Virus record (IMG/VR): IMGVR_UViG_3300032213_003144
Location: 1 to 64,000 of that record
Strand: one strand, 5' to 3'
Length of the DNA: 64,000 bases
From: a virus
How positions within the stretch are numbered: position 1 is the stretch's first letter; each line of letters begins with the position of its first letter. Below, piece after piece: positions 2,342 to 27,298 of the stretch. The notes beneath the pieces are model-generated. The model saw nothing but the letters and a program-made list of their open reading frames with translations. It did no database searches and was not told the DNA's origin. Made by a program: the position numbers and the translations under genes.

Positions 2342-2403
2342 ATAACTTTTTCGAGAAAGCCGGGGCTCCTCACCACCCAACCACAGGTGTATCCAGTTAT
2401 CTA

Positions 2404-2610
2404 TTAGATAACTATTTGTCCGACACTCACTGTGTAAATAATTCCACCCTGAACAATGTAGGCGTATTCCTTTTCAGTTCCTTGATACTCAATGAAGGTT
2501 GCCTCAACCGTTCCAGTTGTGTGTCGTTTTCCTTTTCCGTTATCAGTTATGTATCCGAACGATACGGGTATCTGGACAGTCGTTCCCTGTTTTATTTCTG
2601 TTCTGTTCAT
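2404..2610 (-). CDS. hypothetical protein (small beta-rich)
   Basis: Last gene of a coupled minus-strand operon; stop lies in the 13-bp box. Confidence 0.65.
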   Translation of the reverse strand: MNRTEIKQGTTVQIPVSFGYITDNGKGKRHTTGTVEATFIEYQGTEKEYAYIVQGGIIYTVSVGQIVI

Positions 2611-2810
2611 ATGTATCTCGGCTCACCGTGTGGTGGGCAGTCCTCGTACGGGTTCTCATTACCCTCGTTGTCCTCGCACGAACAAAAGCCGAATAGGGCT
2701 ACTTGTGTTTCGTGTGTGAGTTCAGCCATATCGTCATAAGACGGTGAACCACCGAGTTGGTCAATGACAACACTCCAGAAGTCCACAAATAGTTTCTCTT
2801 GTGTGTTCAT
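2607..2810 (-). CDS. hypothetical protein
   Basis: Coupled to neighbouring genes. Confidence 0.65.
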   Translation of the reverse strand: MNTQEKLFVDFWSVVIDQLGGSPSYDDMAELTHETQVALFGFCSCEDNEGNENPYEDCPPHGEPRYI

Positions 2811-3142
2811 TACTTACAGTCCTCTATCATCTGTCCACCATCAGTTAGGCGAAGTTCACAACTGTTATGGGTAGGTAGGTAGATGGTGTCTCCAATGGTG
2901 AGTGTCGTGCCGTATGTCTTTACAAGCCTGTCCACTGCTTCCATAAAGTTCCCGTCACAATTCATACGGGCTATCCAGTAAAGCGTGTCTCCCTCTTGGA
3001 TTTCTACGGGTGCGCCAGTACAAAAGAACTCTGCGTCTCTCTCTGACTGGTTCTGTATGTATGTAAAACTAACAAGCGATACGAAAATAACCAGAACCGT
3101 AATGAGTACGGCTTTGACTGTTCTATAAGTTGCTTCGTTCAT
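2810..3142 (-). CDS. membrane-anchored LysM-domain protein (YneA/ChiZ-like architecture)
   Basis: N-terminal TM helix, then VEIQEGDTLYWIA...LTIGDTIYLP LysM signature. Confidence 0.75.
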   Translation of the reverse strand: MNEATYRTVKAVLITVLVIFVSLVSFTYIQNQSERDAEFFCTGAPVEIQEGDTLYWIARMNCDGNFMEAVDRLVKTYGTTLTIGDTIYLPTHNSCELRLTDGGQMIEDCK

Positions 3143-3170
3143 TTCTGTTCTCCCTTTGTTGAGTTATCTA

Positions 3171-3392
3171 TTAGTAGTGGTCACGGGTTAGTTGGTCGTG
3201 TACTGCGTCATCTTTCATCTGTTCCTCAAGGCTCGTAATCTTTTGAGTGAGAGACAGGTGTCTGTTGTTTAGACCCTCAAGTTTTTCTGTTTTTGTTTGT
3301 GTGTCTGGGCGTGAGTTCCAGTACACAAGTTCGGACTCTGTCTGGGCGATAGCCAGTAGGCAGATTTCGTAAGTTTTAGTAAGTGTGGTCAT
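3171..3392 (-). CDS. hypothetical coiled-coil protein
   Basis: 73-aa ORF; stop overlaps the 13-bp box. Confidence 0.65.
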   Translation of the reverse strand: MTTLTKTYEICLLAIAQTESELVYWNSRPDTQTKTEKLEGLNNRHLSLTQKITSLEEQMKDDAVHDQLTRDHY

Positions 3393-3651
3393 ATCTATAT
3401 TCTAGGGAACACCTGACAAGAAGTAAAGCATTTGATGAAAGTTCTCACGGGTTGCTAGTTAGCAAGTCTTGCGAATTAGAACTTATCGGAAGCCCCCCGT
3501 GTGATGGCCATAAAAGCACACAGGGGAAGCCCCGGCTTTTCCCCTGTGTGCTTGGGCGTGTGTGAGTTATCTATCAGGGAACTGGCGCACCCTTCGGGCT
3601 TGCCCTCAAAGTGGGGGGGTGGGTTTGGGGAGAGAACTCTCCCCTCGCCCG

Positions 3652-4050: not shown

Positions 4051-4340
4051 GGTTTTCCCTTCGGTGTGTGGTGTGACATCAGCGTATCGGAAAGGGTACA
4101 GGCTTGACGAGTTATCTATTAGAGAAGGTCGGGTGCGTTTGAGTTTGGCCACAGAGAAACATCTGGGCTTTTGCGAAACATCTGGGCTTTTTATCGGAAG
4201 CCCCCCGTGACCAGAGCAGGTCAAAACATCGGGAAGCCCCGGCTAAAACTCGAAAAAAAAATGAAAGAAAACTGGCGCACCCAACGAAATGAGTTGGGCT
4301 TGCCCTCGGGGGGGGAGGGCAAGCACCAGTTATCTATTAG

Positions 4341-4691
4341 TCACTCCCAACTGATGAAGCCAGTATCTGGGTCGGTGTAGTTCGGAGCAGAGTGGTCTAC
4401 TGCGACTTCACTGAAACCCATCGGCTCGACACGGTACAACTTCACACCAATTCGGATTTCGTCACCAACACTCAACGCCGTGTGTGTCCGGTACGAAGCG
4501 AGTTGTGGCTCGATTTGTTCCCAGAGACGACCGGTGTACATGTTGGTCGCCATGAAAATCGCCTCGCAGATTGCGTCATGATTTTCCTCTGATGTGTCAA
4601 TGTCTCCGAAAAAGAGCGTGACGCTCGAGTGGAAACGTCCGGCGTCTTTGTCCTCCGGAAAAGCCTTCCAGTAAATCGTTCCTGTGTTCAT
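4341..4691 (-). CDS. YodL-like domain protein
   Basis: C-terminal TALSVGDEI...YRVEPMGF resembles the YodL SLSVxD...GF motif; promoter at 4723-4752. Confidence 0.55.
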   Translation of the reverse strand: MNTGTIYWKAFPEDKDAGRFHSSVTLFFGDIDTSEENHDAICEAIFMATNMYTGRLWEQIEPQLASYRTHTALSVGDEIRIGVKLYRVEPMGFSEVAVDHSAPNYTDPDTGFISWE

Positions 4692-4900
4692 GTGATGTCC
4701 CTTCGTTGTGTGGTGTACCACCACCATATCGGGAGCGTTACAGACTAGCCAGAGTTATCTATTAGTAAATCGAAAAAACGAGAATTTGTTATCGGAAGCC
4801 CCCCATCTGCCACAAAAAACCAGACCTACACAGACAGCCCCGCTCTACCTATAAGCTGTATTAGATAAATCTATCTAGAAGGTAAGTGAGAGGACAGACT

Positions 4901-9155: not shown

Positions 9156-9350
9156 GCGGCCATCGTATCACTGAAGGTACAGACTAGCCGAGTTATCTAT
9201 TAGAGAAAGACACCCCGGAATCATTTGCGGCCGTTACGCTTAGTTAGCCAACAAATCCACTCTGGGTTGAAGCCCCGGGGGAAACGGTTGACAACGGGGC
9301 TTCTTTCGCACGATGTTCGGCTCTGAGCACGGGGGGCTTCCGATAACCCA

Positions 9351-9510
9351 CTGGTACTCGGTGGTACTCACTGGGAGACACTGACGAACACTGGCACTCT
9401 GTAGCGCTCTGTAGCGCTCGGTGGTGAACACTCACACTCTGTAGCACTCGGTGGTGAACACTCACACTCTGTAGCGCTCTGTGACGGACACTGGTGGACA
9501 CTGACGCTCG
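9351..9510. repeat. degenerate 10-bp-period tandem array
   Basis: 16 decamers such as gtggtgaaca/ctcacactct/gtagcgctct, with a near-perfect 30-bp duplication. Confidence 0.85.
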
Positions 9511-9583
9511 GTGTATTACTAATAGATAACTATTTACCGTGAGAGTGTGACGCGCAGAACGCGCCACACTCTCTAATAGATAA

Positions 9584-9925
9584 CTATTCGGCTAGTGCTT
9601 TGTGGATGTTGCCGACTAGTTCTTGAGCCTGTGAACCACGACCCAGTGAGCGCGTATTAGTGTCAGCGCCAATTTGATTCGCGAGCCAGTACAAAAACTC
9701 AAGGTTATACACTGCTTTTAGTTCTTGTACTACAGAACCATCATCAGCGAATATCGTTCCCTTGTATGTACCGTCAGACTCATGGGTCTGCACTAATCCT
9801 GCCTCGGTCAATTCACTTAGCGTGAAGTGTGGCGCGTAATACTCGGGATAGAACAAAGTATGTCCGTCTCCGATAATTATTTTTGCTTTTATTGCCTCAC
9901 GTACTTTTTCTTTTGTGATGTTCAT
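9584..9925 (-). CDS. hypothetical protein
   Basis: Start MNITKEK after a GAGGGG RBS. Confidence 0.7.
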   Translation of the reverse strand: MNITKEKVREAIKAKIIIGDGHTLFYPEYYAPHFTLSELTEAGLVQTHESDGTYKGTIFADDGSVVQELKAVYNLEFLYWLANQIGADTNTRSLGRGSQAQELVGNIHKALAE

Positions 9926-9984
9926 ATTTTCCCCTCGCTGGTAGTTATCTATTAGTGAATAAAAGTGTTGGTAATCGTGAGCGA

Positions 9985-10332: not shown

Positions 10333-10448
10333 TTTTTCTCCCTTGTTAGTTGTGGTCATAATCAAATCGTACTAAGCGCGGTACAAACTAGACGCTCTAG
10401 GAATCCCTTATACAGCATGGTGAATAGTTATCTATTAGTAGATAACGC

Positions 10449-10901
10449 CTAAACCTTATTGCGATAATCCCATACATGAATTAGTGGATACAAAGTACCG
10501 AGACACTCTAAATCTATTTCTTCATTATCTATGTCTGGAGTAGTACAGAACATACTTGCCTTAGCGTCTATCCCGTTATAGTTGTCTGGGTAGTTCTCTC
10601 TTACCGTTGCCACGAAATCATCAAATTGTTTTCTTCCGATATTCGCGAGTAGCGCTAGTTGGCAAGCGAATAAATCTGGCTCGGTAATTTTCGGCATAGT
10701 TAGAGATAGTGTCGCGCGATTATTTCGCTTTTGCTTTTCCCACTCATCACCGAATTGTTCCGTCAATACTTGTTTCACTTCTTTTGATTTTATTCCAAAG
10801 TGTTTTGCGATATCGCACACTGGCACTTCATCAAGAAACATCTCACATATGTATTTATACAATTTGGAATTGAGCGATATCTCGGTCATGGCGTTCCCCA
10901 T
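10449..10901 (-). CDS. hypothetical protein with N-terminal HTH-like segment
   Basis: VCDIAKHFGIKSKEVKQVL. Confidence 0.6.
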   Translation of the reverse strand: MGNAMTEISLNSKLYKYICEMFLDEVPVCDIAKHFGIKSKEVKQVLTEQFGDEWEKQKRNNRATLSLTMPKITEPDLFACQLALLANIGRKQFDDFVATVRENYPDNYNGIDAKASMFCTTPDIDNEEIDLECLGTLYPLIHVWDYRNKV

Positions 10902-10910
10902 AGTTATCTA

Positions 10911-11531
10911 TTAGTAATAGTTATCTATTAGTAGTATTTCGCTTTCACCCCTACGGGTGAAGTAGGCGATAGCGTCATCACGCTTTATGGTTCGCTCTAG
11001 CACGATAGGCTCATCATCATCCAGTGTGAGACGTTCTGAAAACCACTTCGCTCTGCTCGCGTCAAGTGTCCACGAAAATCCATCTTCGTTCTGTCCAGCG
11101 ATACATCCACGATAGACCGTCAGCGTCTCATCTAGTTTTTTGTATTCTTCATATTCTTCTTCGTTCATTATTAGGTGACTGCTCGCTCTGTCTGACTCCA
11201 GTAGTGAGCGCCATACATATTTGTCCTGCCACATATTTTCAGTACCGACACATACGTCACCAAGTAGCGCCCAATACTGCTCATCAGATAGTGAGTCGGC
11301 TATTTCATCAAATGCACTAATGCGATAAGGCTTTTCGTGGAGATAGATATAGGTGCTGTATTCCTTGTTCTCCAGCGCGCGCTCGGTGGCGTTCTTTTTC
11401 TGGACATACATCTCGTTTATCATGCCGATATCAAATAGCCCAATAACGTGAACCAGTGGATGAGATACGCGCTTACCGAATATGTCACACTCGTAAACGT
11501 AATCCTGTAGTTCTTCTAGTAGTTGTTCCAT
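10911..11531 (-). CDS. putative ADP-ribosyltransferase-fold protein (R-S-E type)
   Basis: TLTVYRG, GFSWTLD and RGESEILL motifs in order; start re-assigned to MEQLLEE. Confidence 0.55.
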   Translation of the reverse strand: MEQLLEELQDYVYECDIFGKRVSHPLVHVIGLFDIGMINEMYVQKKNATERALENKEYSTYIYLHEKPYRISAFDEIADSLSDEQYWALLGDVCVGTENMWQDKYVWRSLLESDRASSHLIMNEEEYEEYKKLDETLTVYRGCIAGQNEDGFSWTLDASRAKWFSERLTLDDDEPIVLERTIKRDDAIAYFTRRGESEILLIDNYY

Positions 11532-11755
11532 ATAACCAATGTACCAATTCAGTAACAGAATAGCAAGGGTTATCGGAAGCCCCCCGTGTTCTAGCTCAGA
11601 ACAAATCACCAGAAGCCCCGGCCAAAACGCTGGCGCACCCACCAAAAGAGGTGGGCTTGCCCTCAAAGTGCGGGGCTTGTCCCCCTGTCGAGCGGCTAGT
11701 CTGTACCCGGGTTGGTACGATGTCCGTCTACGGACATCTACCACAAGGAGCACAC

Positions 11756-12061: not shown

Positions 12062-12352
12062 ACTCCTCGCGGCGAGTTGCTCACGCACTTCGTGCGTGGG
12101 CTTCTCGCTTGGGAGAGCCCCGGCTCAACACGAAAACCGCGGGGCTTTCCCCTTCGGGGAAGGCTTCGGCGTCACGGGGGGCTTCCGATAACACGGCTGG
12201 CGCACACCTACGGTGTTTGCCCTCAACCTCGCAGGGCTACCTCTAATAGATAACTCTCGGACTAGGACAATCTCTAATAGATAACTAATGGTGGCAAGTC
12301 TGTAAGCGTCTTACTAGGCTTGTAGTACCACTACAACCACAAGGGGGCAAGT

Positions 12353-12838: not shown

Positions 12839-12868
12839 TCACTAATAGATAACTAGAAAAGGGGAAAA

Positions 12869-13150: not shown

Positions 13151-13152
13151 TT

Positions 13153-13458: not shown

Positions 13459-13514
13459 ACGTAGTCGGATTACGAGTTATCTATTAGTGATGGGGAACTA
13501 TCGCTAGTAGGTAA

Positions 13515-13769
13515 TTAGTTATCTATTGAGAATAGGTGAAGCGAGGTGCTTCGTGCTTCCCTGAATAAATATCCTGCGTCTGTAATCCACTTAGCAAATG
13601 CGTTCACCTCTGTAACAAGTTCGCTCATTGACACACCCCACTCTTTACATTGGTCATCAAAGTTGCCTTCGGCTATATCGCCCCAAACAGCCTCAATGGC
13701 TTGTGCGCCAGTTGTAGCGAGCGTGTAGTAATTCTCTGTAAGTATCAAAATTATTTCTTGTTTATCCAT
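13515..13769 (-). CDS. hypothetical protein
   Basis: 84 aa, preceded by TATGAT; ends in SIDN (13-bp box variant read in frame). Confidence 0.65.
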   Translation of the reverse strand: MDKQEIILILTENYYTLATTGAQAIEAVWGDIAEGNFDDQCKEWGVSMSELVTEVNAFAKWITDAGYLFREARSTSLHLFSIDN

Positions 13770-14064
13770 TTGCTCATCATACCGACACAGAACCTTTGCG
13801 ACTTATCGGAAGCCCCCCGTGTTCAGAGATGCGACAGCCCCACAGGGAAGCCCCGGCAAACACACCCGCCCGCGGGGCTTCTCCCCAGCTCGGCACCTGC
13901 GCGTCACGGGGGGCTCCCGATAACAAGCCCAGACGATTCACAACCTGCCGCGCGCTCTCGCGCTTGCCCACACGCGAACACGGCGCAATCTCTAATAGAT
14001 AACTTGGCAAGCCTGTACCAGCGCTGATATTCTAATAGATAACTACTACGAAGGGAGCAAGGTT

Positions 14065-14657: not shown

Positions 14658-14962
14658 CGCGAAGTTATCTATTAGTGATTCACGCCGATTCACTGATAGA
14701 TAACTCTGCATCGTGTGGGCAAGCGCGTGAGCGCGCGCCAGCGTTTGTCGAATGGCGTCGGGAGCTCGGTGCGGGGGAAGCCCCGCGGGGAACGGCGCTA
14801 GCCGGGGCTTATCCCCGAGCGATAGGCTCTGTTTGGACACGGGGGGCTTCCGATAACTCTCTGCTGTTTCTTTCTTTCTTTCTTATTCTGTGAGGGTGCT
14901 TGACTTTCTTTCCAGAGTTACCTAACCTAATAGATAACTACTAACCACAAAGGGGATACGCA

Positions 14963-15265
14963 ATGAACGCAAAGGAATTAGAACGACAAGAGAGAATAGA
15001 CGCACATTATCGGGCGTTAGCAAAAAACATTTGGCTATTTGGTCTTGCCAGTGTCATTGTTTCTCTTTTGATTTTTTTCGGTATGTCTAGTCCGTCTTAC
15101 TCTTGCCCTAATATCACGGTCACTGTTCAGCAAGGTGACACGCTTGACGGGATTATTCGTGAACACTGTTCAGGTACTTACACTGACGCACTTGACGATA
15201 TTGTGAGCGAATACGGCACGACTATCTACGCAGGGCAGACCGTCACACTTCCAGACGGTAACTAA
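14963..15265 (+). CDS. membrane-anchored LysM-domain protein (paralog of 2810-3142)
   Basis: TM helix plus VTVQQGDTLDGII...IYAGQTVTLP. Confidence 0.75.
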   Translation: MNAKELERQERIDAHYRALAKNIWLFGLASVIVSLLIFFGMSSPSYSCPNITVTVQQGDTLDGIIREHCSGTYTDALDDIVSEYGTTIYAGQTVTLPDGN

Positions 15266-15344
15266 TAGATAACTATTTGGCTAGTCTGTATCATCACCGA
15301 TAGTCTCACACCTAATAACTACTAGACACAAGGGGCAAAAAATT

Positions 15345-15955: not shown

Positions 15956-16304
15956 TGCTTTCGGGTTATCTATTACTAATAGATAACTATTCCACCAATA
16001 CAAATAAAACAAAATCTCGACGCAAGCGCAACGAAGCCCCGCCAACGAAGTTTGACGCGGGGCTTCAACCTGCTCGCACGAACTGGTGTTCGCAAGCATT
16101 ACACGGGGGGCTTCCGATAAGTTTCGCTTTCCTGTGGGTGGGCGCAGGGGGTTTCTTTATTTACTCTTTATTATATTGACGGTGGTGGAAGACCCTTTCC
16201 CTAATAGATAACTATGGGTGTGGCTAGTCTGTACCTTGACTGATACGCTGACATCACTCCCGTTGTACCACCACAACTAGACCCAACTGGAGTGGAGAGA
16301 TAAA

Positions 16305-16797: not shown

Positions 16798-17240
16798 ATC
16801 GGTGAAGTTATCTATAAAAGATATGGCGATTACCTCTAATAGATAACTCTAAACGCACTCCGATACACAGACGCTCGTAGTGTCTCGTTCGCATTACGCA
16901 GTTCGGCAATCTCTCTCTCAAGAGCGTTGAGCCTCTGTCGTGTTGCCAAGAAATCAAACTTATTGGAAGCCACCCGTGATATCGGGACAATGCTGGCAAG
17001 GGAGCCCCGGCTTTGATGCCTTCTCGACGGGGCTTCCTTCGGAGAAGGAACGCCTGCTGACACGGGGGGCTTCCGATAACTCTCGCCTTTGTCGCTCACT
17101 CACACACAGTAGCCCGAACGGGTGTTCGTATGCCCCAAGTCTCTAATAGATAACTGTCAAGGTATGTTGGAAAGTCTGATACTCGGGGTGTAGGGTAGTG
17201 GCTAGCCACAACCCACACCAACTAGAAAGAAGGTAATCAA

Positions 17241-17654: not shown

Positions 17655-17732
17655 TCTGTCTAGTCTGTATCGGGGGCGTAAATGCCCCCGATACACTAAT
17701 AGATAACTCCAACTACTAGGAAAGGGGCAGAA

Positions 17733-18152
17733 ATGCCAACAGCATTACTACTAAAGACAACGGGCGAAGTAATCCCGTTAGAACTCACCAACGACAACGA
17801 CCACGAACTAATCCGTGAAAGTGTCGGGGGCTGGTTTGACTGCGTGAGAAATCACGAAAGGCGCATTGTCGGTTATGTTCACGACGAAGGGCTACTCATT
17901 GGACTGCCAGCAAATCCAGTTTCGTCGTTTCTCTTTGACCAAGTTCTCGCAGGTGACTGCGTTATCGTTGGCTCTTTCAGCGAGGCTGGAGAGTATGACG
18001 GAGAGAGCCACGAACTCCCTAAGATGTTTCACTCGGGTCGTTTCGTGGAAATGGCAAGCGAAATGGGCGCAGATATCAAACTCAATGAGAAACTAAACGC
18101 TCTGCTCGCTGGAGTGGACACAAGTTTTACAGTTACCGAGTGGTCTGAATAG
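17733..18152 (+). CDS. DUF3846-like protein
   Basis: VGGWF...DEGLLIGLPAN...LAGDCVIVG. Confidence 0.7.
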   Translation: MPTALLLKTTGEVIPLELTNDNDHELIRESVGGWFDCVRNHERRIVGYVHDEGLLIGLPANPVSSFLFDQVLAGDCVIVGSFSEAGEYDGESHELPKMFHSGRFVEMASEMGADIKLNEKLNALLAGVDTSFTVTEWSE

Positions 18153-18463
18153 TTATCTATGAGAGAGTGGTGCGAAATCCGTGCCACTCTCTCACGGAAG
18201 TATTACTAATAGATAACTCTCTCTAATAGATAACTCCAATTCCGTCAGGGGGAAGCCCCGCTGGAACGGCTTTCTGTCGGGGCTTCCCCCGAAGGGGAAG
18301 GCTTCGGCGCATACGGGGGGCTTCCGATAACTGGCGCACCCTGTCGCTTCGCTTCGGGTTTGCCCACAAGTGAGCCGACTATCCCTAATAGATAACTTGG
18401 TAAGTCTGTACCGTGCCTAGTATGATGAACTTGTAAGTAACCACCAACCACGAAGGGAATACC

Positions 18464-18910
18464 GTGAACATTACAGAGTTAGCCGAGAAAGTAGAAAGCG
18501 AAGTCAATGACAACCTTGGGTTTGACCTAAAGCAAGCCCTACTTGTATCCGTTACAGACGGACTATTTGGAATTGAGTTGTCCGACCCACTCGCACACGG
18601 AGATGTGTACGAACTCATTGAGAGTGACGCTTCATTGGAATTGGCGAAGCGTTCAGCCTTTATCGCAATTGTTACTTGTGGTTGGGCTGCGCCTATCCGT
18701 GCCAATGATGATGATGAAGTAGCACCAAGCCAACACCCTGACCGTAGGCGTGTCCGTCTAGTCGTACTCGCTAGCCGTAGTTCGGTAGCAAGTGTGCTTC
18801 GCTTTAGCGATACACCTGATGAGACAGTTACAGATGAAGGCAAGGCTACGGGTTCGCTCGCAGACGCTATTCTCAAACTGATGGCGCAGAGCGCAAGTCA
18901 CCTGAACTAA
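18464..18910 (+). CDS. hypothetical protein
   Basis: GWAAP...PSQHPDRRRVR; promoter at 18397-18426. Confidence 0.7.
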   Translation: MNITELAEKVESEVNDNLGFDLKQALLVSVTDGLFGIELSDPLAHGDVYELIESDASLELAKRSAFIAIVTCGWAAPIRANDDDEVAPSQHPDRRRVRLVVLASRSSVASVLRFSDTPDETVTDEGKATGSLADAILKLMAQSASHLN

Positions 18911-19149
18911 TAGATAACTCAAACTCTCGCCACGACACTCACCACCCCCCGAGTGTCGTGGCGTTAGTTATCTAATAGATAACTCAAACCAACTCGGCGC
19001 ACTCGGTCGGGGGGAAGCCCCGCCACCAACGCTTTTGGCCGGGGCTTTTTCGAGCTGAAAGCAAGAGCGCAACACGGGGGGCTTCCGATAAGTTGGCAAG
19101 TCTGTACCGTGTCCAGTATGATGACATCACCTAACCACAAGGAGAAAAA

Positions 19150-19452: not shown

Positions 19453-19715
19453 CCCGTATGTTCACTGAATACATCGGTGGAACGACTGACTGGTTTCAGT
19501 GCCTCTGTGGAAATCAGCCGAATTATGACGGTTTCTATTCGTGCCGAAGCACTGGAGAAATTGTCTCACCAACGCTCTATGGAGAGTGGGACGAAACTAC
19601 CTACCTCTGTGAGCGTTGTAGTCGGATTATCAACGGCAATACACTGGAAGTCATTGGAGTATGTTCAGAGCAAGTCGCTTTCAGCAATTCCAATTTTGAC
19701 TGGAATTCTTACTAA
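19449..19715 (+). CDS. zinc-ribbon-like hypothetical protein
   Basis: CLCGN...GFYSC...CERC. Confidence 0.65.
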   Translation: MTRMFTEYIGGTTDWFQCLCGNQPNYDGFYSCRSTGEIVSPTLYGEWDETTYLCERCSRIINGNTLEVIGVCSEQVAFSNSNFDWNSY

Positions 19716-19736
19716 TAGATAACTGGGAGAACGAAA

Positions 19737-19925
19737 ATGAGCAAAGCAGGCGAGCGAGTGAGGTTCATATCCTCATCAGACCCATACACAAAATTGCGTG
19801 AAGGTGATGAGGGTGTAATTACAAATGTAGATTCACTTGGCACGACACACATCAACTGGGATAGTGGAAGCACTCTCGGGATGATTCAGAGTGAGGGTGA
19901 CTGTTTTGAGATTATCGGGAACTGA
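19737..19925 (+). CDS. DUF4314-like protein
   Basis: GERVRF..DPY....GDEGVITNVDSLGTTHINWDSGSTLG. Confidence 0.75.
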   Translation: MSKAGERVRFISSSDPYTKLREGDEGVITNVDSLGTTHINWDSGSTLGMIQSEGDCFEIIGN

Positions 19926-19928
19926 CTG

Positions 19929-20297
19929 ATGTCTCTAATAGATAACTATTTCACTCGTATTTGGACGTTTCTATCTATCGCCTTTCAGATTCTCGTAGCA
20001 AGAATTCAGGAGAAAAAAGTAATCGGTGGAGAGGGTGAGGTCCATTGGGTTGACCTAACCAAAGAGGAGAGGCAAAACCTTGTAGGCATTTTCCCACACG
20101 GGCATAGTCTCTACTTCTCCATATCGCCAGAGCCAGTCGGTGCGATTTTTGATGACTACGGGATTCCAGATGATGAGGTCTTTCACTACTTCACGGGCAT
20201 ACGAGAGATTCTCAAGCACTCACTCGTAGCGCATGCAGAGGGCTGGCGAATCGCTTCATGCCACCTCGTTTCAGCCAAAGAGGACCTGCTGGATTAA
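19929..20297 (+). CDS. hypothetical protein
   Basis: 122-aa ORF; start uncertain. Confidence 0.55.
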   Translation: MSLIDNYFTRIWTFLSIAFQILVARIQEKKVIGGEGEVHWVDLTKEERQNLVGIFPHGHSLYFSISPEPVGAIFDDYGIPDDEVFHYFTGIREILKHSLVAHAEGWRIASCHLVSAKEDLLD

Positions 20298-20555
20298 CTA
20301 ATAGATAACTCGAATATTTTCTCAAAGAAGCCCCGCGTGCAACAAATGGGGCGGGGCTCCGACCTGACGAAGGCAGGCTCGGTGGACGGGGGGCTTCCGA
20401 TAACCAAGCAGTCACGGGGGGCTTCCGATAAGTCGGGCGCAGAAACTTGTGGGTCACTCTCTAATAGATAACTTTATATGACGGTGGTGGATGAGTTGTC
20501 AAGTCTGTACCTGTGGGGATATAGTGGGTCATACCACAACTACCTAAGGAACGAC

Positions 20556-21287
20556 ATGCCAAACTGGTGCTACCAAAACCTAGAAGTACGAGGACCGTCA
20601 CACGACCTTGATGATTTCATTGACGCTATGCAAGTTACCGAGCCTGACAGTGCAGGTGTTATGCAGACAAGCGTAGAACTGAATCAAATGTGTCCAGTTG
20701 ATGACAGGACATTTGCTTACAAAACAATTACTGATGAAGCAGGCAAAGAAACACTAATCAAGACATACGCAACTCTTAGCGAGAACGGCTTTGACGGATA
20801 CGGACACTGTGTTGAGATTTGGGGTACGAAGTGGGGCGCATGCCATATCGTATGGGATGGAAAAAAGGGAAAATATCCAATACGCATTTACTTTGAGAGT
20901 GCATGGTCACCTGCCTGTGGTCTTATCAAGGCGATATCAAGCAAGTTCCCAACACTCTTATTCGGACTTGAGTTCACAGAGGAAGCAGATTTCTTTGCAG
21001 GCTGTGAGGTGTACCAAAATGGCAAGACCATAGCCGTCCACGACATAGGTTCGGCAGAGTCGGACGAAGCAGACGCTTTCTTAGCAACGATACAGGGCAA
21101 GGCGCAAGCGAGCGAAACAGAAGTGTCCGACACTGACTGGGAAACTTATTATGACCTGTGTTCCCAAGCAAGAGAGATTCGTGATGAGAAATTACTGAAA
21201 GTGTTTGCCAAGTCAATGAACGACTTTGGCAAGTCATACTCATCAAAGCCACCGAAAGGCAAGGTGAAAAATCAAGAACCTTTCTAA
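20556..21287 (+). CDS. DUF1281/Api92-like ferredoxin-fold protein
   Basis: MPNWC, WGTKWG and FESAWSP motifs; start re-assigned to MPNW. Confidence 0.75.
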   Translation: MPNWCYQNLEVRGPSHDLDDFIDAMQVTEPDSAGVMQTSVELNQMCPVDDRTFAYKTITDEAGKETLIKTYATLSENGFDGYGHCVEIWGTKWGACHIVWDGKKGKYPIRIYFESAWSPACGLIKAISSKFPTLLFGLEFTEEADFFAGCEVYQNGKTIAVHDIGSAESDEADAFLATIQGKAQASETEVSDTDWETYYDLCSQAREIRDEKLLKVFAKSMNDFGKSYSSKPPKGKVKNQEPF

Positions 21288-21335
21288 TAGATAACTCAAT
21301 ACCCCCCAAAAAAACAAACAAGCAAAGGAAACAAC

Positions 21336-21557
21336 ATGAGTACCATGATTCAGAAAGAATCCAAGAAAATTGCACTACGACTACTCCGTGAGCGTCAAGA
21401 GCGAGAGTGGTCACAGCAGGAACTTGCCGACAAGGCAGGAATTGACAGAAAAACCGTGAATCGTATTGAGAACCTTCACTTCTCACCGAGCATGGAAACA
21501 TTTCTGCGCCTATGCAATGCAATGAAAGTTCAGGCACACGAAGTACTAAAGGGTTAA
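21336..21557 (+). CDS. XRE-family HTH transcriptional regulator
   Basis: WSQQELADKAGIDRKTVNRIEN....PSMET. Confidence 0.9.
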   Translation: MSTMIQKESKKIALRLLRERQEREWSQQELADKAGIDRKTVNRIENLHFSPSMETFLRLCNAMKVQAHEVLKG

Positions 21558-21676
21558 TTGGTGTTGTGGTGGTCGCTGTGCGACTTTGCATAGCGACCAC
21601 ACTCACTAATAGATAACCTGTCTAGTCTGTACCCTTCCTGATACGATGAAGCCACCACAACCAAAAGGAGTAAGCC

Positions 21677-22354
21677 ATGTCAGAAAATACTGATGATTTC
21701 CGAAACCAAAAAATGTTCTCCGTCTTAGAGGACGCTATGGAACGAGCGATGTACGCAAAGACCGAGATGTGCAAAGATGAACCGATGTCCGACAACCCAC
21801 CGATGTTGCTGGTTGGATACGACAAAAAAAATGTAGAGGAAAAAACACGCCTGACCATTGGTGACGATGATGAAAGTGAAATGCAAATTGGCATGGTTCC
21901 ACTGATTCACAAGGACGATGTTCGTGAGTGCTTGGTGGACGCTATCGGCGCAATTCCAACTCAAAAGTTTGAGTTCTTGATTCTCGCAGTTGAGGGATAC
22001 AAAGACACAATGACAGAAAACGGAGAAATGCCCGAAGGCTGGTCAAGGGGTGACTTGGGCAAAGACTTTAAGGAGAACCCTTTCACGACTGTTAAAGAGG
22101 GCGTAATCGTGAGTGGCGTTGACTGGGAACATGAATACGCAATAAACGGCGCATGCACATACTCCTACGATGACAAGGGCGTTCCACAGTGGGATGAAGT
22201 TATGTGGTCTGAAATTGAGATTTCAGAGGAGACTGGCATGATGACATTTATCATGGCGAGTGCCTGTGAGTTTATGAAAAAGAAAATAATCACAGAATCC
22301 TTCCACGCACTGTTGGAAGCAACACCGAAAAAATCAAAGAAAGACAAGGAGTAA
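21677..22354 (+). CDS. hypothetical protein
   Basis: AAGGAG RBS; promoter at 21618-21647; stop lies in a box variant. Confidence 0.75.
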   Translation: MSENTDDFRNQKMFSVLEDAMERAMYAKTEMCKDEPMSDNPPMLLVGYDKKNVEEKTRLTIGDDDESEMQIGMVPLIHKDDVRECLVDAIGAIPTQKFEFLILAVEGYKDTMTENGEMPEGWSRGDLGKDFKENPFTTVKEGVIVSGVDWEHEYAINGACTYSYDDKGVPQWDEVMWSEIEISEETGMMTFIMASACEFMKKKIITESFHALLEATPKKSKKDKE

Positions 22355-22363
22355 TAGATAACT

Positions 22364-22519
22364 ATGGGTGACGATGTAATCGCACAAGTTACGACACTTG
22401 TTGACAAGGCAATAAACACAATATCGGGCAGAGAGTTGGTAGCGTCAGCCGAAATGGTTGACCTACTACTTGACATCCGACTACTACTACTAGACACAGA
22501 AGCAAAGGAAACAGCATGA
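22364..22519 (+). CDS. small hypothetical protein (51 aa, not in ORF track)
   Basis: MGDDVIAQVTTLVDKAINTISGRELV...; ATGA coupling to the next gene. Confidence 0.6.
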   Translation: MGDDVIAQVTTLVDKAINTISGRELVASAEMVDLLLDIRLLLLDTEAKETA

Positions 22520-22881
22520 CAACGCACCTAACCAACGAGGAACGCATGAACCCGTTCATGTCAGACAACTTTGATGTTGATGACCTGTCACTCATAACAG
22601 AGGCAATAGGTCTATACATTGAGAACGACTCTCGCTTGATGTACAACGCACCACAAGTTATGGAAGTTGCGAAAATCCAAAACGATGATGAGCGTATGCA
22701 GGCTCTCTCGCAACTGAAACCGAAGTTTGAGGGTCAGCCACTATCCGATGAGGAACTGGACCGACTATTACTAATAGATAACTTAGTGCTTGACGCTATG
22801 GGCGTGAAAGAAGCAGAGAGCGAAGTTGACGGAGTTATCTATTCATTGGAAGAACACCTTAAGAAAAATGGAAAGGAGTGA
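22516..22881 (+). CDS. hypothetical protein
   Basis: 121 aa; contains an exact 13-bp box read as LIDN. Confidence 0.7.
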   Translation: MTTHLTNEERMNPFMSDNFDVDDLSLITEAIGLYIENDSRLMYNAPQVMEVAKIQNDDERMQALSQLKPKFEGQPLSDEELDRLLLIDNLVLDAMGVKEAESEVDGVIYSLEEHLKKNGKE

Positions 22882-23157: not shown

Positions 23158-23643
23158 ATGCAGTCAATAACCGAACAATTCGTGAACAGCGTTAATAAGG
23201 AACTATGGGACGAAGCAACCGAGAGGCATAAATCCAAGTTCGCCGTTCCAGCAGATGAGGTTAACTACATAGGAGAAATTGTTCGTGGACTCCATGTACT
23301 AGGGATATGGCAAAGAGAGGGTCAGGCTCGCCCGCCCGAATCTTTCCTGCGGTCTTACTCTGTTCTGGATTTCGTGATTCCTGACCTACTCCAGAAATAT
23401 TTGGGTAAATCTACGGTCTTGTCGCTCGACGAGATAAAGCCAGAAAAACGAGAAAAGAAGTGGGGTGCTTTCATTGAGTGGGCAAAACTTCACGAAGCAG
23501 AACAGTTCACCACCGAACAACTTGTAGAGATATGTGGTTTCTCCTACCCGACCACGCTTGAGTACCTACGGATTTCTCCATACTTCAGGAAAATCAAGAA
23601 GGGTCTTTACGAAGTTATTGACCCCAAGACTCAAGACAAGTAA
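23158..23643 (+). CDS. hypothetical protein with C-terminal winged-helix-like segment
   Basis: FTTEQLVEICGFSYPTTLEYL....FRKIKKGLYEV. Confidence 0.65.
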   Translation: MQSITEQFVNSVNKELWDEATERHKSKFAVPADEVNYIGEIVRGLHVLGIWQREGQARPPESFLRSYSVLDFVIPDLLQKYLGKSTVLSLDEIKPEKREKKWGAFIEWAKLHEAEQFTTEQLVEICGFSYPTTLEYLRISPYFRKIKKGLYEVIDPKTQDK

Positions 23644-24011
23644 TTACTTCTAATAGATAACTTTTTCTCCTTTTTCTTCTTTTCTTAGGAGAGCCCCGGC
23701 CAACTCGCCGACAGGGCGGGGCTTCGCTCGGGGAACGAGCAAGCAGGCACACGGGGGGCTTCCGATAACTCTCTCGGCTGGACGGGGGGCTTCCGATAAC
23801 GCTGGCGCACCCTTCGCTTCGCTCGGGCTTGCCCACGCACCCACCGACTCTCTCTAATAGATAACTCCGAGCGCACCCTTTCTAATAGATAACTCTCTAA
23901 TAGATAACTCGCTACATATATAAATAGTCATAAATAAATGTTGGCTAGTCTGTACCCTTCCCGATACAGTGGGTCTTGCCATACCAACCACAACAAACAA
24001 GGAGAAAGAAA

Positions 24012-24734
24012 ATGGCAGATACAGCAACCAAACTCCCCGAGTGCTGGCAAGCACTAGAGGACACACTCAACGCAGGCATTGACCGTGTGATTCTGTACGG
24101 ACCTTCGGGTATCGGAAAGACTTACGCAGGTCTAACGACTGGCGATGTTGAGGCAGGCGCATACCGACTGGTATGCACAGAGGACATGACCAACATGGAT
24201 GTCACAGGTGGATTCATGCCAAACGGCAAGGGTGGATTCCAATGGCTCAATGGCTCGGCTCTCAAGGCTTGGCAGGGAAATGGGGTCAAGGGTGGTCGGC
24301 TCATCGTGGATGAAGTTGACAAGGCTTCGGGCGATGTGTTCGCAACACTTCTCTCCATGCTTGATTCCCCTGAATCGGCTTCGTATGAACACCCTGAAAA
24401 TGGTGAAATCATCCGACCACTTGCAGGATTCTCTGCAATTATGACAACCAACATTGAGACAATGGGCGAACTCCCTACGGCTCTTGCTGACCGATTCCCA
24501 ATTCGTATCCGTATTGACAAGCCACACCCACAAGCGTTGCTTCGTCTTTCGGCTGACCTTCGTGACTATGCAGTTCGCATGGCTGACGCTGGTGATGACA
24601 GAATCTCACTCCGAGCCTTCATCGCTCTTGACACACTTCGCAAGAGTGTAGGTATGGAACGAGCATGCCAGTTGACCTTCGGGCGCAGGGCAAAGCAGAT
24701 TCTTGACGCTATTGCAGTGGACATGGTGAAATAA
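24012..24734 (+). CDS. MoxR/CbbQ-like AAA+ ATPase
   Basis: Walker A GPSGIGKT, Walker B LIVDEVD, sensor TTN, ALADRF. Confidence 0.88.
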   Translation: MADTATKLPECWQALEDTLNAGIDRVILYGPSGIGKTYAGLTTGDVEAGAYRLVCTEDMTNMDVTGGFMPNGKGGFQWLNGSALKAWQGNGVKGGRLIVDEVDKASGDVFATLLSMLDSPESASYEHPENGEIIRPLAGFSAIMTTNIETMGELPTALADRFPIRIRIDKPHPQALLRLSADLRDYAVRMADAGDDRISLRAFIALDTLRKSVGMERACQLTFGRRAKQILDAIAVDMVK

Positions 24735-24736
24735 CC

Positions 24737-26290
24737 ATGTCACGACACTCAATTCCAACCTCAACCACAGTGGGGAAAGCCTTCCCTACCTCAATAGATA
24801 ACTCCGAGAGGGGGTCGGCTCAAGCAGAGCCGACCCTAATCGGGCGTTCCGACATGGAACATGGTAAGTGGCATGTAGAACACTGCCGAGCAGTGCGAGG
24901 CGAGCCAAAGACAAATGTTCTTAACCGAGTTATGTACGCACCTACCGATGATGATGAAAAGGCTCGGGCAATTCGGGCGCACGAACTCATGCATGCAAAA
25001 GTTTCACCTGCAAATGACATGGACGCTTGGGTGGGTAGGCAAATTGCCTCTGCACAAGCACTCATCGTTACAGAGGAATTGCGTGTCAATTACCTATGCA
25101 CCAAAGCAGGGTTTGACATGTCTCATCTCGCTGACGGAAGTGAAACGGCAGACGGAGAGCGCATGGGTGCAACGAAAGACTGGGCTGGTTGTGTCGCTAC
25201 AGCAGTGGCAACAGCAGGAACAGGTGCAAACAAATTATTCCTCAATGGAGTTCGCAGGCACAACCGAGAGTGGGGAGAAATCCTTCTCAAGATATCGAAA
25301 AGAGCAGTGAAAGAAATCAAGAAAGCCGATAAAGAACGGAATCTCGCAAGCACAGAAGCAGACGGGAACACTGGTCTATCGCCTATTGGTTTCGCTCACA
25401 CAGAACGAATTGCCGAGTGGGTGGACAGGCTCGCCATGTTCCCACCACCACCCGAGCCACCAAAAAAAGCGAAAAAAGCAGGTGACTCCAAGTCGGGTGA
25501 GGGTGACTCTCCAATAGATAACTCCTCTAGTGAAGTTGCCCACAGCAATAAAGGCAAATCGGAGACAGGAAACAAGGAAGGTAATCCTGACCTTGACAAA
25601 ATCACTCCAACGGAAGCGACTAGAGGAATACCTCGTTGGGGAGAACTCCGAATTGAGCGTTGCCCAATGCCAAAATACAGCAAGGGTCATATCGGTAAGA
25701 AGCGAATTGCAACGAACATGGGTCGCAGACCACGCCGTATGCACCGTCTATTGACCGACCCCTCAATGCGAGTGTTTGACCGTACCGTTCGTGGTAGTGG
25801 TGGCATGGTAATTCTTGACGCAAGTGGGTCAATGTCTTTCACCGAGAATCAAATTGCTGAAATCTTGGAACATGCACCTGGCGCAACTATCGCCATGTAC
25901 ACCGACAAAGGCAACGAAGGAACGAACATGTTCATTGTTGCTGACAAAGGTCGCATGGTTGAGCAACTACCTGACTACGGATACGGCAACGGAGTTGACT
26001 TCCCTGCCATTGAGTGGGGCGTGAAAAACAAAGCGCAAAAGAACTCGCCTTTAGTGTGGGTTACTGATGGTGGAGTGTGTGGACATAATGACGGGTTTCA
26101 CGGAGTACTGTCTATGCAGTGCCTCACCTACGCTCGTAAGAACAAATACATAATTGTTCCCCACGCAGACGAAGCCATAAAGCAACTGAAACAACTATCC
26201 AGTGGTGGCAAGGCTCGTAGCGTTTATCCAGCCATGTTCAGGCAAGTGTGGCGAGAAGCAAACGGTAACGAACTCCCATACTCTGAATAG
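24737..26290 (+). CDS. HExxH metallopeptidase-like plus VWA domain protein
   Basis: RAHELMH...EE in the N-terminal half; MIDAS DASGS and VTDG in the C-terminal half. Confidence 0.75.
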   Translation: MSRHSIPTSTTVGKAFPTSIDNSERGSAQAEPTLIGRSDMEHGKWHVEHCRAVRGEPKTNVLNRVMYAPTDDDEKARAIRAHELMHAKVSPANDMDAWVGRQIASAQALIVTEELRVNYLCTKAGFDMSHLADGSETADGERMGATKDWAGCVATAVATAGTGANKLFLNGVRRHNREWGEILLKISKRAVKEIKKADKERNLASTEADGNTGLSPIGFAHTERIAEWVDRLAMFPPPPEPPKKAKKAGDSKSGEGDSPIDNSSSEVAHSNKGKSETGNKEGNPDLDKITPTEATRGIPRWGELRIERCPMPKYSKGHIGKKRIATNMGRRPRRMHRLLTDPSMRVFDRTVRGSGGMVILDASGSMSFTENQIAEILEHAPGATIAMYTDKGNEGTNMFIVADKGRMVEQLPDYGYGNGVDFPAIEWGVKNKAQKNSPLVWVTDGGVCGHNDGFHGVLSMQCLTYARKNKYIIVPHADEAIKQLKQLSSGGKARSVYPAMFRQVWREANGNELPYSE

Positions 26291-26420
26291 ATAACTTCTC
26301 GCCTACCGAGTTCCCACCAGTTCTCGGTAGGCAGAGTAAGCAACTACCCACCTGTTCGGCTTTCTCCTTTCAGGTGGGTAGTTCGCTATCCCCTAATAGA
26401 TAACTAAGAAAGAGGAAAAA

Positions 26421-26636
26421 ATGAGTGACAACGAAACACTTGATGAATCACTAGAGAACCTGCAAGACAGTCTGCAACATGCAATTCACATACTGCAAGG
26501 GATTCTTGATGATATTGAGGACAATGGATACACCCAACAGCAAGCGACACTGGATTACGAAAACATAGTGTGGAACGAAGGCATTGACTTTATGAGTGCA
26601 TTAGAATCGTTTGCATTATTCTCTCCAGCAAAATAG
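26421..26636 (+). CDS. hypothetical protein
   Basis: GAGG RBS. Confidence 0.65.
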   Translation: MSDNETLDESLENLQDSLQHAIHILQGILDDIEDNGYTQQQATLDYENIVWNEGIDFMSALESFALFSPAK

Positions 26637-26679
26637 TTCCAGCAACCTCTAATAGATAACTCTAAGAAAAGAGAAAAAA

Positions 26680-26982
26680 ATGAAAATCAAAAAGAAAAAG
26701 AAAGAGAAGCCGAGCAAATTAAGAAAGCAGATAAATGAACACCTAGAGTCAATGGGTGAGAACGCATTACTCATGGACGGGTTTGATGAAGCACTCATTG
26801 GATTCTCTCAACGAATAAATGAGCCTTTATTGGCAGTTTATTCGTGGGAGAAAATGATGACAGTGTGCATTGAGCGTGACGGTATGGACGATGAGGAAGC
26901 AGAGGAGTACATCAGTTACAACTGCATTGGTGCATGGGTAGGCGAGCAGACACCGATTATTGTTATGCCAGTTCTTTACTAA
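26680..26982 (+). CDS. conserved hypothetical phage protein
   Basis: DGFDEALIG...AVY...EEAEEYISYN.IGAWVGEQTP. Confidence 0.75.
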   Translation: MKIKKKKKEKPSKLRKQINEHLESMGENALLMDGFDEALIGFSQRINEPLLAVYSWEKMMTVCIERDGMDDEEAEEYISYNCIGAWVGEQTPIIVMPVLY

Positions 26983-27007
26983 TAGATAACTAACGAAAGC
27001 GAAAACT

Positions 27008-27298
27008 ATGAACTATGAAGTTATCTATTATGTACTATTCGTGACCCTATTGGGAATCGCATTACACGCACACACACTCACGCTCGTTCGCTTGATGAGA
27101 CACCGTGTACCAGTTGTATCTCTAATAGATAACTCTCTAACGCTCTACGCTCTCCCTAGAGGACGCTACGACAGAACCAATGGCTCGCTCTATCGTGCGT
27201 ACAAGGACGAACAGGGCAGACACAGCGAGAGCCTGTGGGAACGACAACGCCCACGAAACGACTTCGGCACTTCGCAACACTCTGGTCACGCCGAGTAA
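27008..27298 (+). CDS. putative membrane protein
   Basis: N-terminal hydrophobic helix; contains the last exact 13-bp box. Confidence 0.5.
   Translation: MNYEVIYYVLFVTLLGIALHAHTLTLVRLMRHRVPVVSLIDNSLTLYALPRGRYDRTNGSLYRAYKDEQGRHSESLWERQRPRNDFGTSQHSGHAE

Follow-up and report, generated by a model that had tools for sequence, protein, structure and literature searches.

A single group among the temperate mycobacteriophages is known to control transcription through numerous oriented sites at which elongating RNA polymerase is stopped. The stoperators of Cluster A (those of the L5 gp71, Bxb1 gp69 and TipsytheTRex repressors) are 13-bp asymmetric sequences present in many copies, in one orientation to transcription, within short intergenic spaces and at promoters, and their motifs differ between related phage lineages (PMC9283540, PMC6550527). 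This report concerns a 13-bp box, CTAATAGATAACT, that is repeated in a 64,000-nucleotide stretch of viral DNA (hereafter the window), the first 64 kb of IMG/VR record IMGVR_UViG_3300032213_003144, which is 170,425 bp long and rated complete by CheckV. The same anatomy recurs here, two to four times as dense, in a clade of large and apparently lytic phages and without a related repressor.

Two other repeat systems of phages invite comparison. Cluster K mycobacteriophages carry SAS/ESAS, a 13-bp asymmetric repeat located 3-7 bp before start codons and containing the Shine-Dalgarno (SD) core, for which function and reader are unassigned (PMC3203893). T4-like phages carry PeSL cassettes, composed of an early promoter and a stem-loop, in a region of small variable early genes (PMC2839356, PMC4122927).

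The phage itself is a myovirus with a tail sheath and portal, and also encodes ribonucleotide reductase, a primase and three giant proteins. A WhiB-family gene (33188-33535, minus strand), 72-83% identical across the seven relatives compared, supports an actinobacterial host. No nucleotide match to this genome was found among GenBank phages, where the nearest portal is 44% identical, and the GenBank matches of its AAA ATPase are distant CobS-like genes only; the phage thus has no cultured relative. Many relatives were found among metagenomic viral contigs, and the hosts of the clade are apparently uncultivated freshwater (lake) Actinobacteria. The complete record contains no tyrosine integrase (PF00589) or serine recombinase (PF00239), although extrachromosomal lysogeny is conceivable. 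Lacking an integrase, this 170-kb myovirus is probably lytic, and a role for the box in lysogenic immunity is unsupported.

A strand-asymmetric box confined to one gene block

A first-pass annotation, made from the letters of the window, had reported about 45 exact copies of an asymmetric 13-bp box oriented with transcription. The figure holds: the window has 45 occurrences of the exact 13-mer, 33 on the plus strand and 12 on the minus strand, where 100 shuffles give an expectation of 0.00, and allowing up to two mismatches gives 66 copies against 1.47 expected. The whole genome contains 46 exact copies. As the sole addition lies at 169,766 (plus strand), the box is limited to one block of ~28.6 kb, which occupies 2335-27134 of the window (both strands) and runs on leftwards over the record ends to that copy. 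The block holds small genes of early type, a class inferred from their content and from host-type promoters, and, with its small orphan genes and recurring cassettes of promoter and GC hairpin, has the look of a hyperplastic region.

At a divergent point near 11.6 kb the genes change from the minus strand (to its left) to the plus strand (to its right), and the box switches strand with them. With genes called by a codon model built for this work (start codons are approximate), 45 of the 46 exact boxes are co-oriented with a flanking confident gene. Deep gene interior makes up 68% of the block yet holds only two of the 46 exact copies, the other 44 lying outside it, and nearly every gap between the small genes is marked by a box. 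The rule extends to a lone minus-strand gene (13515-13769) within the plus-strand region, which has minus-oriented boxes at its 3' end: a copy with two mismatches at its stop (13517-13529) and an exact copy 27 nt downstream (13475-13487), oriented as this gene and not as the surrounding plus-strand genes. Since orientation follows even single genes, a replication-polar signal is excluded, and a site of the Chi or KOPS type was rejected on the same ground and because the boxes avoid coding DNA. When the copies are aligned, only 13-14 bp are informative, the flanks are not conserved and the site is not palindromic.

Two further repeated elements share the block. The first is a family of promoter-like sequences, TTGnCw-AGYCTGTAcc-N6-8-(TG)nTAnnnT, in which the spacer is conserved; all 15 credible copies lie in the block, co-oriented with genes, on the minus strand at 4104, 4746 and 9185 and on the plus strand at 11698, 12297, 14010, 14577, 15283, 16226, 17662, 18403, 19099, 20502, 21624 and 23947. 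The same promoter role is filled in relatives by TTGATAAATCTGCTG (G001) and TTTGGAAATTTGGTAT (G010). The second, referred to here as the GC element, contains ...ACGGGGGGCTTCCGATAA(C/G) and ends in ...GGCTTCCGATAA(C/G); its 18 copies (window 3494-23788 and genome position 169694) are likewise limited to the block and run in the direction of the genes, as a rule with a box on either side. The order of an intergenic cassette is box, GC element, box, promoter, CCACCACAACC leader and SD. Could one protein bind both box and GC element, as had been proposed from their similar ends? The letters they have in common amount to GATAAC, a likeness of only 6 bp. The sole further point in favour of the proposal is that the CCGATAA(C/G) end of the GC element lies just upstream of the -35 at two promoters (19080 and 11576), in the position taken by the box elsewhere.

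Relatives carry their own variants at conserved positions

Relatives carry in the syntenic block a box variant of their own, in 40-119 copies each. At least ten such lineage-specific variants were found, all with an R-G-R-T-A-A core; the 5' part differs between lineages and the TAGATAA-S-T part is conserved. The variant is ACTAGATAAGT in G001 (42 copies), GGTAGATAAG in G002 (60 copies), ggAGTAGATAAgTc, also as AGTAGATAA, in G006 (119 copies of the core GTAGATAA) and GGTGTAGGTAAgTc, also as GTGTAGGTAA, in G008 (80 copies of the core GTAGGTAA), while GGTAGATAAGT, AGTAGATAAGT, GGTGTAGGTAAGT, AATAGATAAGT, aGAGTAGATAAcT, GGTGGGATAAC, GGGGATAAGT and AAGGATAATGTA are among those found in relatives of the clade. 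Within a genome almost all copies are of that genome's own type, and confinement to one block was also seen in G001, G002, G006, G008 and G009. More distant lineages depart from this pattern: G010 has no such box, and G003 (L225/L226) has a different composite motif, with ~40 co-oriented copies of cttag-N-CCCACCC-N-CCGACAAatc at ~109-126 kb of its record, each directly before a GC hairpin containing GCCCCG. In G003 this motif may take over the function that the box has elsewhere.

Among relatives that share the box of the window, box positions are 99-100% identical, compared with 76-92% for the flanking intergenic DNA and 75-95% for coding DNA. Flanks that diverge freely around 13 fixed base pairs point to selection on the site itself. 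Genomes with different boxes can also be compared. Of the orthologous junctions of G006 and G008, 23 are boxed in both genomes and 18 in neither, while a box in just one genome was seen at seven junctions, all of them in G006 (Fisher p = 7e-8); the number and orientation of boxes at common junctions largely match, and in some inverted pairs the spacer is conserved while both arms have switched. Box positions are thus inherited, and their letters were rewritten in concert, which would be expected if a trans-acting reader had changed specificity and its sites had followed. Independent insertion of cassettes would hardly explain the pattern.

The largest box array always lies ahead of the conserved AAA/p517 operon (24012-26290), which encodes a CobS/MoxR-like AAA ATPase (83-86% identical across lineages) and an adjoining 517-aa partner. 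There are three boxes in G000, four in G001, five in G006 and four in G008. In the window this is the triple array at 23854-23866, 23882-23894 and 23897-23909 (all plus strand), upstream of the operon promoter, with the promoter-like motif at +37 from the third copy.

Could the box be maintained by recombination alone, as a microhomology kept identical by gene conversion and serving the modular shuffling of small genes, with no dedicated reader? Such shuffling has been proposed for the PeSL cassettes of T4-like phages (PMC2839356, PMC4122927), and the hyperplastic look of the block, with its repeated promoter and GC-hairpin cassettes, is in keeping with it, as is the way in which boxes often bracket hairpins or promoters as direct repeats. 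A 676-bp cassette (18330-19006) composed of box, promoter, gene 18464-18910, box, hairpin and double box is absent from the close relatives L110, L111 and L113, and the junction of this indel falls in a repeated unit of ~90 bp made up of box and GC element; other indel breakpoints in comparisons with close relatives lie 13-170 bp from boxes. However, homologous exchange would hardly be served by only 13 bp, and it is in the ~90-bp GC element, not in the box, that the junction was observed. Gene conversion alone also leaves unexplained the strict orientation, the absence of boxes at divergent starts (see below) and the concerted change at kept positions, and the fixity of 13 bp amid diverging flanks indicates selection on the site. 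Recombination as the sole explanation is therefore distinctly unlikely. There is nevertheless a resemblance to PeSL regions, in that repeated cassettes with a sigma-70-type promoter and a G/C-rich stem-loop lie among small variable early genes; the bounding of indels by repeats, known from PeSLs, has one clear example here (18330-19006). The box differs in being neither promoter nor stem-loop. It is an additional element that outnumbers both, with all 13 bp exact, a strict orientation and concerted change between lineages, and PeSLs are explained by signals for host RNA polymerase and need no phage-specific reader.

Boxes at stop codons and ahead of start codons

Contexts were assigned for the 59 copies with up to one mismatch. 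In ten of these the upstream gene's stop codon falls inside the box, usually as TAA at box positions 2-4 followed by an in-frame TAG. On the minus strand, the exact copies at 2395-2407, 3162-3174 and 10902-10914 hold the stops of 2404-2610, 3171-3392 and 10911-11531, respectively; the second lies 19 nt ahead of the start of 2810-3142 and the third has the next start 12 nt on. Plus-strand equivalents are found at 15262-15274 (gene 14963-15265, with a promoter-like motif at +8), 18907-18919 (gene 18464-18910, with a hairpin next), 21284-21296 (gene 20556-21287, with the XRE gene 39 nt on) and 26979-26991 (gene 26680-26982). At 19712-19724 (+) the stop of the upstream open reading frame (ORF) is the TAA at box positions 9-11, and the start at 19737 follows 12 nt on. 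Variants take the same position at 2335-2347 (+, one mismatch, gene 2141-2341) and 22351-22363 (+, one mismatch, gene 21677-22354, with the next ATG directly after), at 26284-26296 (+, two mismatches, gene 24737-26290, with a hairpin next) and, outside the block, at 34148-34160 (-, one mismatch, gene 34154-34774 on the same strand). Five of the 59 copies lie within ORFs. One of them, 22771-22783 (+) inside ORF 22516-22881, is read in its one open frame. The copy at 10919-10931 (-), the tandem partner of that at 10902 with a period of 17 bp, is likewise read in its one open frame, by the C-terminus of the gene.

Other boxes follow a stop closely. They are placed directly after the stop of 4341-4691 on the minus strand (4328-4340, -) and of 19929-20297 (20298-20310, +), both followed by a GC element, 10 nt past the stop of 10449-10889 on the minus strand (10426-10438, -), 9 nt past that of 19737-19925 (19935-19947, +) and 6 nt past that of 23158-23643 (23650-23662, +, then a GC element). 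Some lie between a stop and the next start: 12842-12854 (+) is 3 nt past the one and 14 nt before the other, and for 26649-26661 (+) the distances are 12 nt from the stop and 18 nt to the start at 26680. Twelve of the 59 copies are located 12-24 nt before an SD-led start codon, for example 9943-9955 (-), 17 nt ahead of the SD-led start of 9584-9925 on the minus strand. A further copy, 26393-26405 (+), follows a hairpin and precedes the start at 26421 by 15 nt, and 17143-17155 (+) follows a GC element, with the start at 17241 placed 85 nt on.

These placements recall the SAS repeats, which share with the box a single orientation, restriction to the non-structural part of an actinophage genome and the occasional inclusion of the upstream stop codon. 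In contrast to SAS, only 12 of 59 boxes lie within 30 nt of a start, their gaps are 12-24 nt, the SD is separate, and many boxes are found at 3' ends or before promoters or hairpins.

The sense orientation of the box relative to transcription is also what an RNA signal would need. Early transcripts would carry CUAAUAGAUAACU, which might be the target of a phage RNA-binding protein or endoribonuclease (compare T4 RegB and RegA) or of a small antisense RNA, so that mRNAs would be processed, destabilised or silenced. The 12 copies just ahead of the SD and the many at intercistronic junctions or over stop codons would be well positioned for such a role, and inverted pairs could form hairpins. A linear specificity of 11-13 nt would, however, be unusual for protein-only RNases, and no anti-box sequence that could encode a guide RNA was found outside the block, nor was there a match to any Rfam family. 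The sites at promoters are a further difficulty, as is set out next, and overall this explanation appears unlikely.

Boxes at promoters and predicted transcript starts

A promoter-like motif lies just downstream of 12 of the 59 copies. Six of these boxes end 5-6 nt ahead of the AGYCTGTA spacer motif: 13992-14004 and 18385-18397 (+, both +5), 4110-4122 and 9191-9203 (-, both +5), 4753-4765 (-, +6) and the one-mismatch copy 21606-21618 (+, +5), which belongs to the promoter of gene 21677-22354. Elsewhere the distance varies. Following a GC element, 12243-12255 (+) is the first of two boxes ahead of a promoter, and the second, 12274-12286 (+), has the promoter-like motif 10 nt downstream. At 16201-16213 (+) the box lies between GACGGTGGTGGAAGA and the promoter-like motif (+12), and 20461-20473 (+) follows GC elements and is itself followed by GACGGTGGTGG and then the promoter (+28). 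Three boxes are positioned directly after a -10 hexamer: 14032-14044 (+) after that of the promoter next to the 13992 box, with the start at 14065 placed 20 nt on; 17696-17708 (+) after GATACA, with the start at 17733 placed 24 nt on; and 14927-14939 (+), overlapped by a -10-like TAACCT (with TTGACT upstream at 17 nt) and followed 23 nt on by the start at 14963. The predicted transcript start would accordingly fall inside the box at these three sites.

For an RNA-level signal this arrangement is unfavourable, because a box that is upstream of the -35, as in 12 copies, or cut by the transcript start, as in the three just named, is not wholly contained in the local transcript.

The same sites bear on the idea that the box is itself a promoter or initiator, recognised by an unidentified phage RNA polymerase or sigma-like factor, with specificity in the variable 5' half and melting at the AT-rich 3' half. 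The division between a 5' part that varies by lineage and a constant TAGATAA-S-T part resembles the promoter families of T7, T3 and SP6, and such promoters might be expected to form an intergenic motif that is oriented, highly conserved and limited to one block of genes, often 12-40 nt ahead of start codons. But from boxes at convergent 3' ends (2335/2395, 27122 and 13475/13517) neighbouring genes would be transcribed in antisense, the genes that head the divergent units have host-type promoters and no box, hairpins often come right after boxes, initiating bases are not conserved after the box, and gaps of 12 nt to the ATG would leave little or no leader. Searches for a T7-type RNA polymerase (PF00940) and sigma-70 region 2 (PF04542) gave no match, and sequence searches of Pfam, PHROGs and the PDB recognised no polymerase in any of the three giant proteins, where one control was uninformative and a very divergent enzyme might have escaped. 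Phage-specific promoters of the T7, N4 and phiKZ early types combine a polymerase or sigma factor of the phage with a site heading each unit, and the box shows neither feature. A promoter function is thus very unlikely. A MotA-like arrangement, with the box at -30 and a fixed -10 downstream, was rejected because no conserved positions were found downstream of the box.

Hairpins, inverted pairs and the direction of transcription

Strong hairpins within 75 nt follow ~15 boxes (15 of the 59 in the context count) and precede 21. In the tandem pair 18206-18218 and 18223-18235 (+, 17-bp period) the first box comes after a hairpin and the second is followed by a GC element; together with the copy at 18206, the one-mismatch copy 18151-18163 (-) brackets the hairpin. 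The one-mismatch copy CTGATAGATAACT at 3565-3577 (-) flanks a GC element.

Inverted pairs form a further class. At 2395/2401 and 18966/18972 two boxes overlap as palindromic double sites, in which two TAGATAACT cores are 10 bp apart, a spacing that suggests a protein-on-DNA geometry and fits DNA binding better than an RNA-level signal. The plus-strand partner 2401-2413 has one mismatch forced by the palindromic overlap; at the second site the one-mismatch copy 18966-18978 (-) overlaps the exact copy 18972-18984 (+), and a GC element is next. The exact copy 15976-15988 (+) adjoins an inverted variant at 15964 (-) and is followed by a GC element. More widely spaced are the exact copy 14663-14675 (-) and the one-mismatch copy 14693-14705 (+, GC element next), the former being the sole exact copy that is not co-oriented with a confident neighbouring gene, as well as 16836-16848 (+) with a variant at 16806 (-), the copy at 22771 with 22833 (-), and the copy at 26979 with the one-mismatch copy 27019-27031 (-). 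The first-pass annotation had pointed to copies supplying stop codons, to copies abutting the -35 region at four promoters, to the tandem copies at 10902/10919, 18206/18223 and 23854/23882/23897 and to the inverted pairs at 2395/2401, 15964/15976 and 18966/18972, the first at a convergent junction; each of these was recovered, with additional stop-codon copies at 2395, 3162, 10902 and 2335 and additional -35 copies at 4110 and 21606.

Could the AT-rich box then be part of factor-independent terminators, providing A/U tracts on either side of GC hairpins, in a host with terminators that have no long runs of U? Arrangements of box, hairpin and inverted box (18907-18978 and 2335-2407), and the CCGACAAatc motif of G003 directly ahead of hairpins ~40 times, have that appearance. 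Hairpins are, however, no commoner beside boxes than at randomly chosen intergenic sites of the block, where 85 of 200 control windows had one, and many boxes, notably those before an SD and start, have no hairpin nearby. An A/U tract needs no exact 13 bp and would not change in concert between lineages, and this function is most improbable. Canonical U-tract terminators themselves number 15 in the block against 16.9 expected, and the generic promoter and terminator scan that gave this count showed no enrichment.

The relation of the boxes to gene direction is more regular. The two genes at the head of the divergent units (with starts at 11531 and 11756) are preceded by promoters and not by a box, and the convergent junction 2341/2404 is boxed on both strands (2335/2395). 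At the right-hand boundary of the block the last exact box, 27122-27134 (+), faces the convergent gene 27137-27463 (-), whose 3' end is 2 nt away. Across five genomes, convergent junctions have 1.18 boxes each, tandem junctions 0.78 and divergent junctions 0.51, and boxes at tandem junctions are co-oriented in 163 cases and anti-oriented in 39. On these three grounds (box-free divergent starts, convergent junctions boxed on both strands and the ranking of junctions), transcription always runs into a box.

A putative polar operator

Taken together, the box may be a cis-acting, strand-asymmetric site that is read in trans by a phage factor whose specificity changes between lineages, most likely as a polar operator on double-stranded DNA, a reading in which roughly even confidence can be placed. 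A sequence-specific phage factor, most likely a protein, would read the box on double-stranded DNA, at gene 3' ends, between cistrons, just upstream of the -35 and over the predicted transcript starts of ~15 host-type promoters. A bound box would stop RNA polymerase entering from upstream, and would repress or insulate an adjacent promoter. The block of ~28 kb and early type could in this way form a single regulon that is shut off or divided into separate units. Without enrichment of canonical U-tract terminators, another way of ending transcripts would be useful, and mixed contexts with no fixed distance to other signals are the pattern reported for operators and stoperators (PMC9283540).

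The resemblance to stoperators raised in the first-pass annotation therefore stands for anatomy, lineage variants and constraint on the site. Like the Cluster A sites, the box is asymmetric, 13 bp long, present in more than 20 copies (here 46 exact), mainly in one orientation, intergenic and promoter-associated, variable between lineages and found in a phage of a probable actinobacterial host (here via the phage WhiB). As regards placement at promoters, 12 boxes abut or precede promoter-like motifs and three lie over predicted transcript starts. The sequences, however, are unrelated. Cluster A phages have no more than ~30 sites over a 50-kb genome, in both genome arms, whereas the box reaches 1.6 sites/kb and is found only in ~28 kb of a 170-kb genome, likewise in relatives, with up to 119 copies there. 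Cluster A phages are also temperate and encode a gp71-type repressor with an N-terminal HTH (helix-turn-helix) and a stoperator domain, and here neither a gp71-like protein nor an integrase was detected. Given these absences and the confinement to one block, the box system is best described as analogous in mechanism to that of Cluster A and not as a member of it. Orientation-dependent arrest of RNA polymerase is also brought about by the eukaryotic and organellar proteins mTERF and TTF-I/Reb1, which act on asymmetric sites at the ends of transcription units; no homologue search was made for these, and the likeness is one of mechanism only.

What could such a reader be? The XRE-type protein (21336-21557, plus strand, 73 aa), the HA + HTH protein (27522-27980, minus strand), ribbon-helix-helix (RHH) proteins (32609/32766) and a MarR-like protein (36645) had been put forward as candidates, but their DNA-reading regions are invariant and they are present in box-less relatives. 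In the XRE-type protein the recognition helix is the same across box types, and the protein occurs in lineages with no high-copy box. The HTH of the HA + HTH protein is invariant in all lineages, including the box-less ones. The DNA-reading parts of the MarR/TrmB-like winged-helix protein wHTH146 (36645), RHH p55, HicB-like p114 and WhiB are also unchanged across box types, and all of these were rejected.

Two proteins are restricted to box-bearing genomes. The first, p225 (21677-22354), is acidic (pI ~4.5), with a confidently predicted alpha/beta fold (pLDDT 82), no PDB match and no DNA-binding motif; its restriction may merely reflect phylogeny, and it was rejected as a reader. The second, p148 (37098-37544, plus strand), is a possible candidate with a predicted winged helix of MarR/PadR type (pLDDT 78; Foldseek E ~1e-2, probability ~1); it is the only protein with a DNA-binding fold limited to box-bearing genomes, and it evolves fast (28-32% identity). 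In a contrast of three genomes (G007 and G008 with the same box, G006 with a different one) only small acidic orphans, a basic 226-aa protein of the virion region and segments of a giant cargo protein stood out as more alike in the same-box pair, and no candidate reader was isolated; as the genomes are mosaic and ~80% identical, this contrast has little power. No protein was found to co-vary with the box variants between lineages.

Several observations count against a DNA-bound polar operator. None of the XRE, HA + HTH, wHTH146, WhiB, RHH p55 and HicB-like p114 proteins tracks the box, all of them being present also in the box-less G003 and G010, and p148 has unlike putative recognition helices in G007 and G008, although the box of these two genomes is the same. 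No homologue of L5 gp71 was found by tblastn and phmmer in six genomes and five predicted proteomes (best E 0.19-0.23) or in a fold search that covered part of the proteins only. Anti-oriented boxes are commoner in G002 and G006, many of them in inverted pairs 30-38 bp apart. Genes outside the block do not avoid the 7-mer core in the sense orientation (35 observed against 31 expected), so there is no sign that stray sites are harmful. Finally, all the evidence comes from sequence, and the reader, action on DNA as opposed to RNA and the effect on transcription are hence putative.

If the boxes were orientation-dependent stops, box and reader together could provide compact orthogonal transcription insulators for Actinobacteria. 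In addition, the series of lineages, with up to ~120 sites rewritten in place, is a data set on how a regulator and its regulon change specificity together and on how the reader may be found. A more speculative proposal, which must be considered doubtful, is that the boxes and a fast-evolving reader form a switchable specificity code, in which the reader would act as a polar, DNA-bound transcription stop of a type that in bacteria is described only from Cluster A prophages. The reader need not be a conventional repressor and might enter with the DNA among the injected cargo polyproteins, and 50-120 sites would be rewritten between sister lineages through competition during co-infection. Each lineage would then shut down the early genes of its own kind only, amounting to heteroimmunity without lysogeny.

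Other repeats and genes

The motif (T)GACGGTGGTGGAAGA occurs at 16178, 20480, 27484, 29102, 29831 and 31243 (all plus strand). It is common to all lineages of the clade, including those without the box, in which it is often the top repeat. The HA + HTH protein, with its equally invariant HTH, is a plausible partner of this motif.

The intergenic segment 9204-9583 is opposite in orientation to the neighbouring minus-strand genes. Its components are a GC element (+), a 30-bp tandem repeat in 2.6 copies (9407-9483) and a hairpin between two exact plus-strand boxes, 9519-9531 on its upstream flank and 9573-9585 on its downstream flank. The segment may be a small plus-strand transcription unit or a non-coding RNA.

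The start of the record (window 4-138) consists of (ACCT)25 followed by CACCCCATACA repeats, and CCACCCC-rich sequence is also found near 169,780; these repeats may mark an assembly break or a physical end.

Further genes of the phage encode large proteins. A 998-aa protein (window 50761-53757) contains an Lcl_C domain, and a 962-aa protein (window 55927-58815) contains an Mtd_N domain, of the major tropism determinant type known from diversity-generating retroelements. Among the giant proteins, one of 2583 aa has a DnaQ-like exonuclease and a ParB C-terminal-like stretch, and another of 2699 aa (genome 126945-135044; L004:2945-11041) includes a domain for which a small alarmone synthetase was the match (PDB 8vx3, E = 3e-14).

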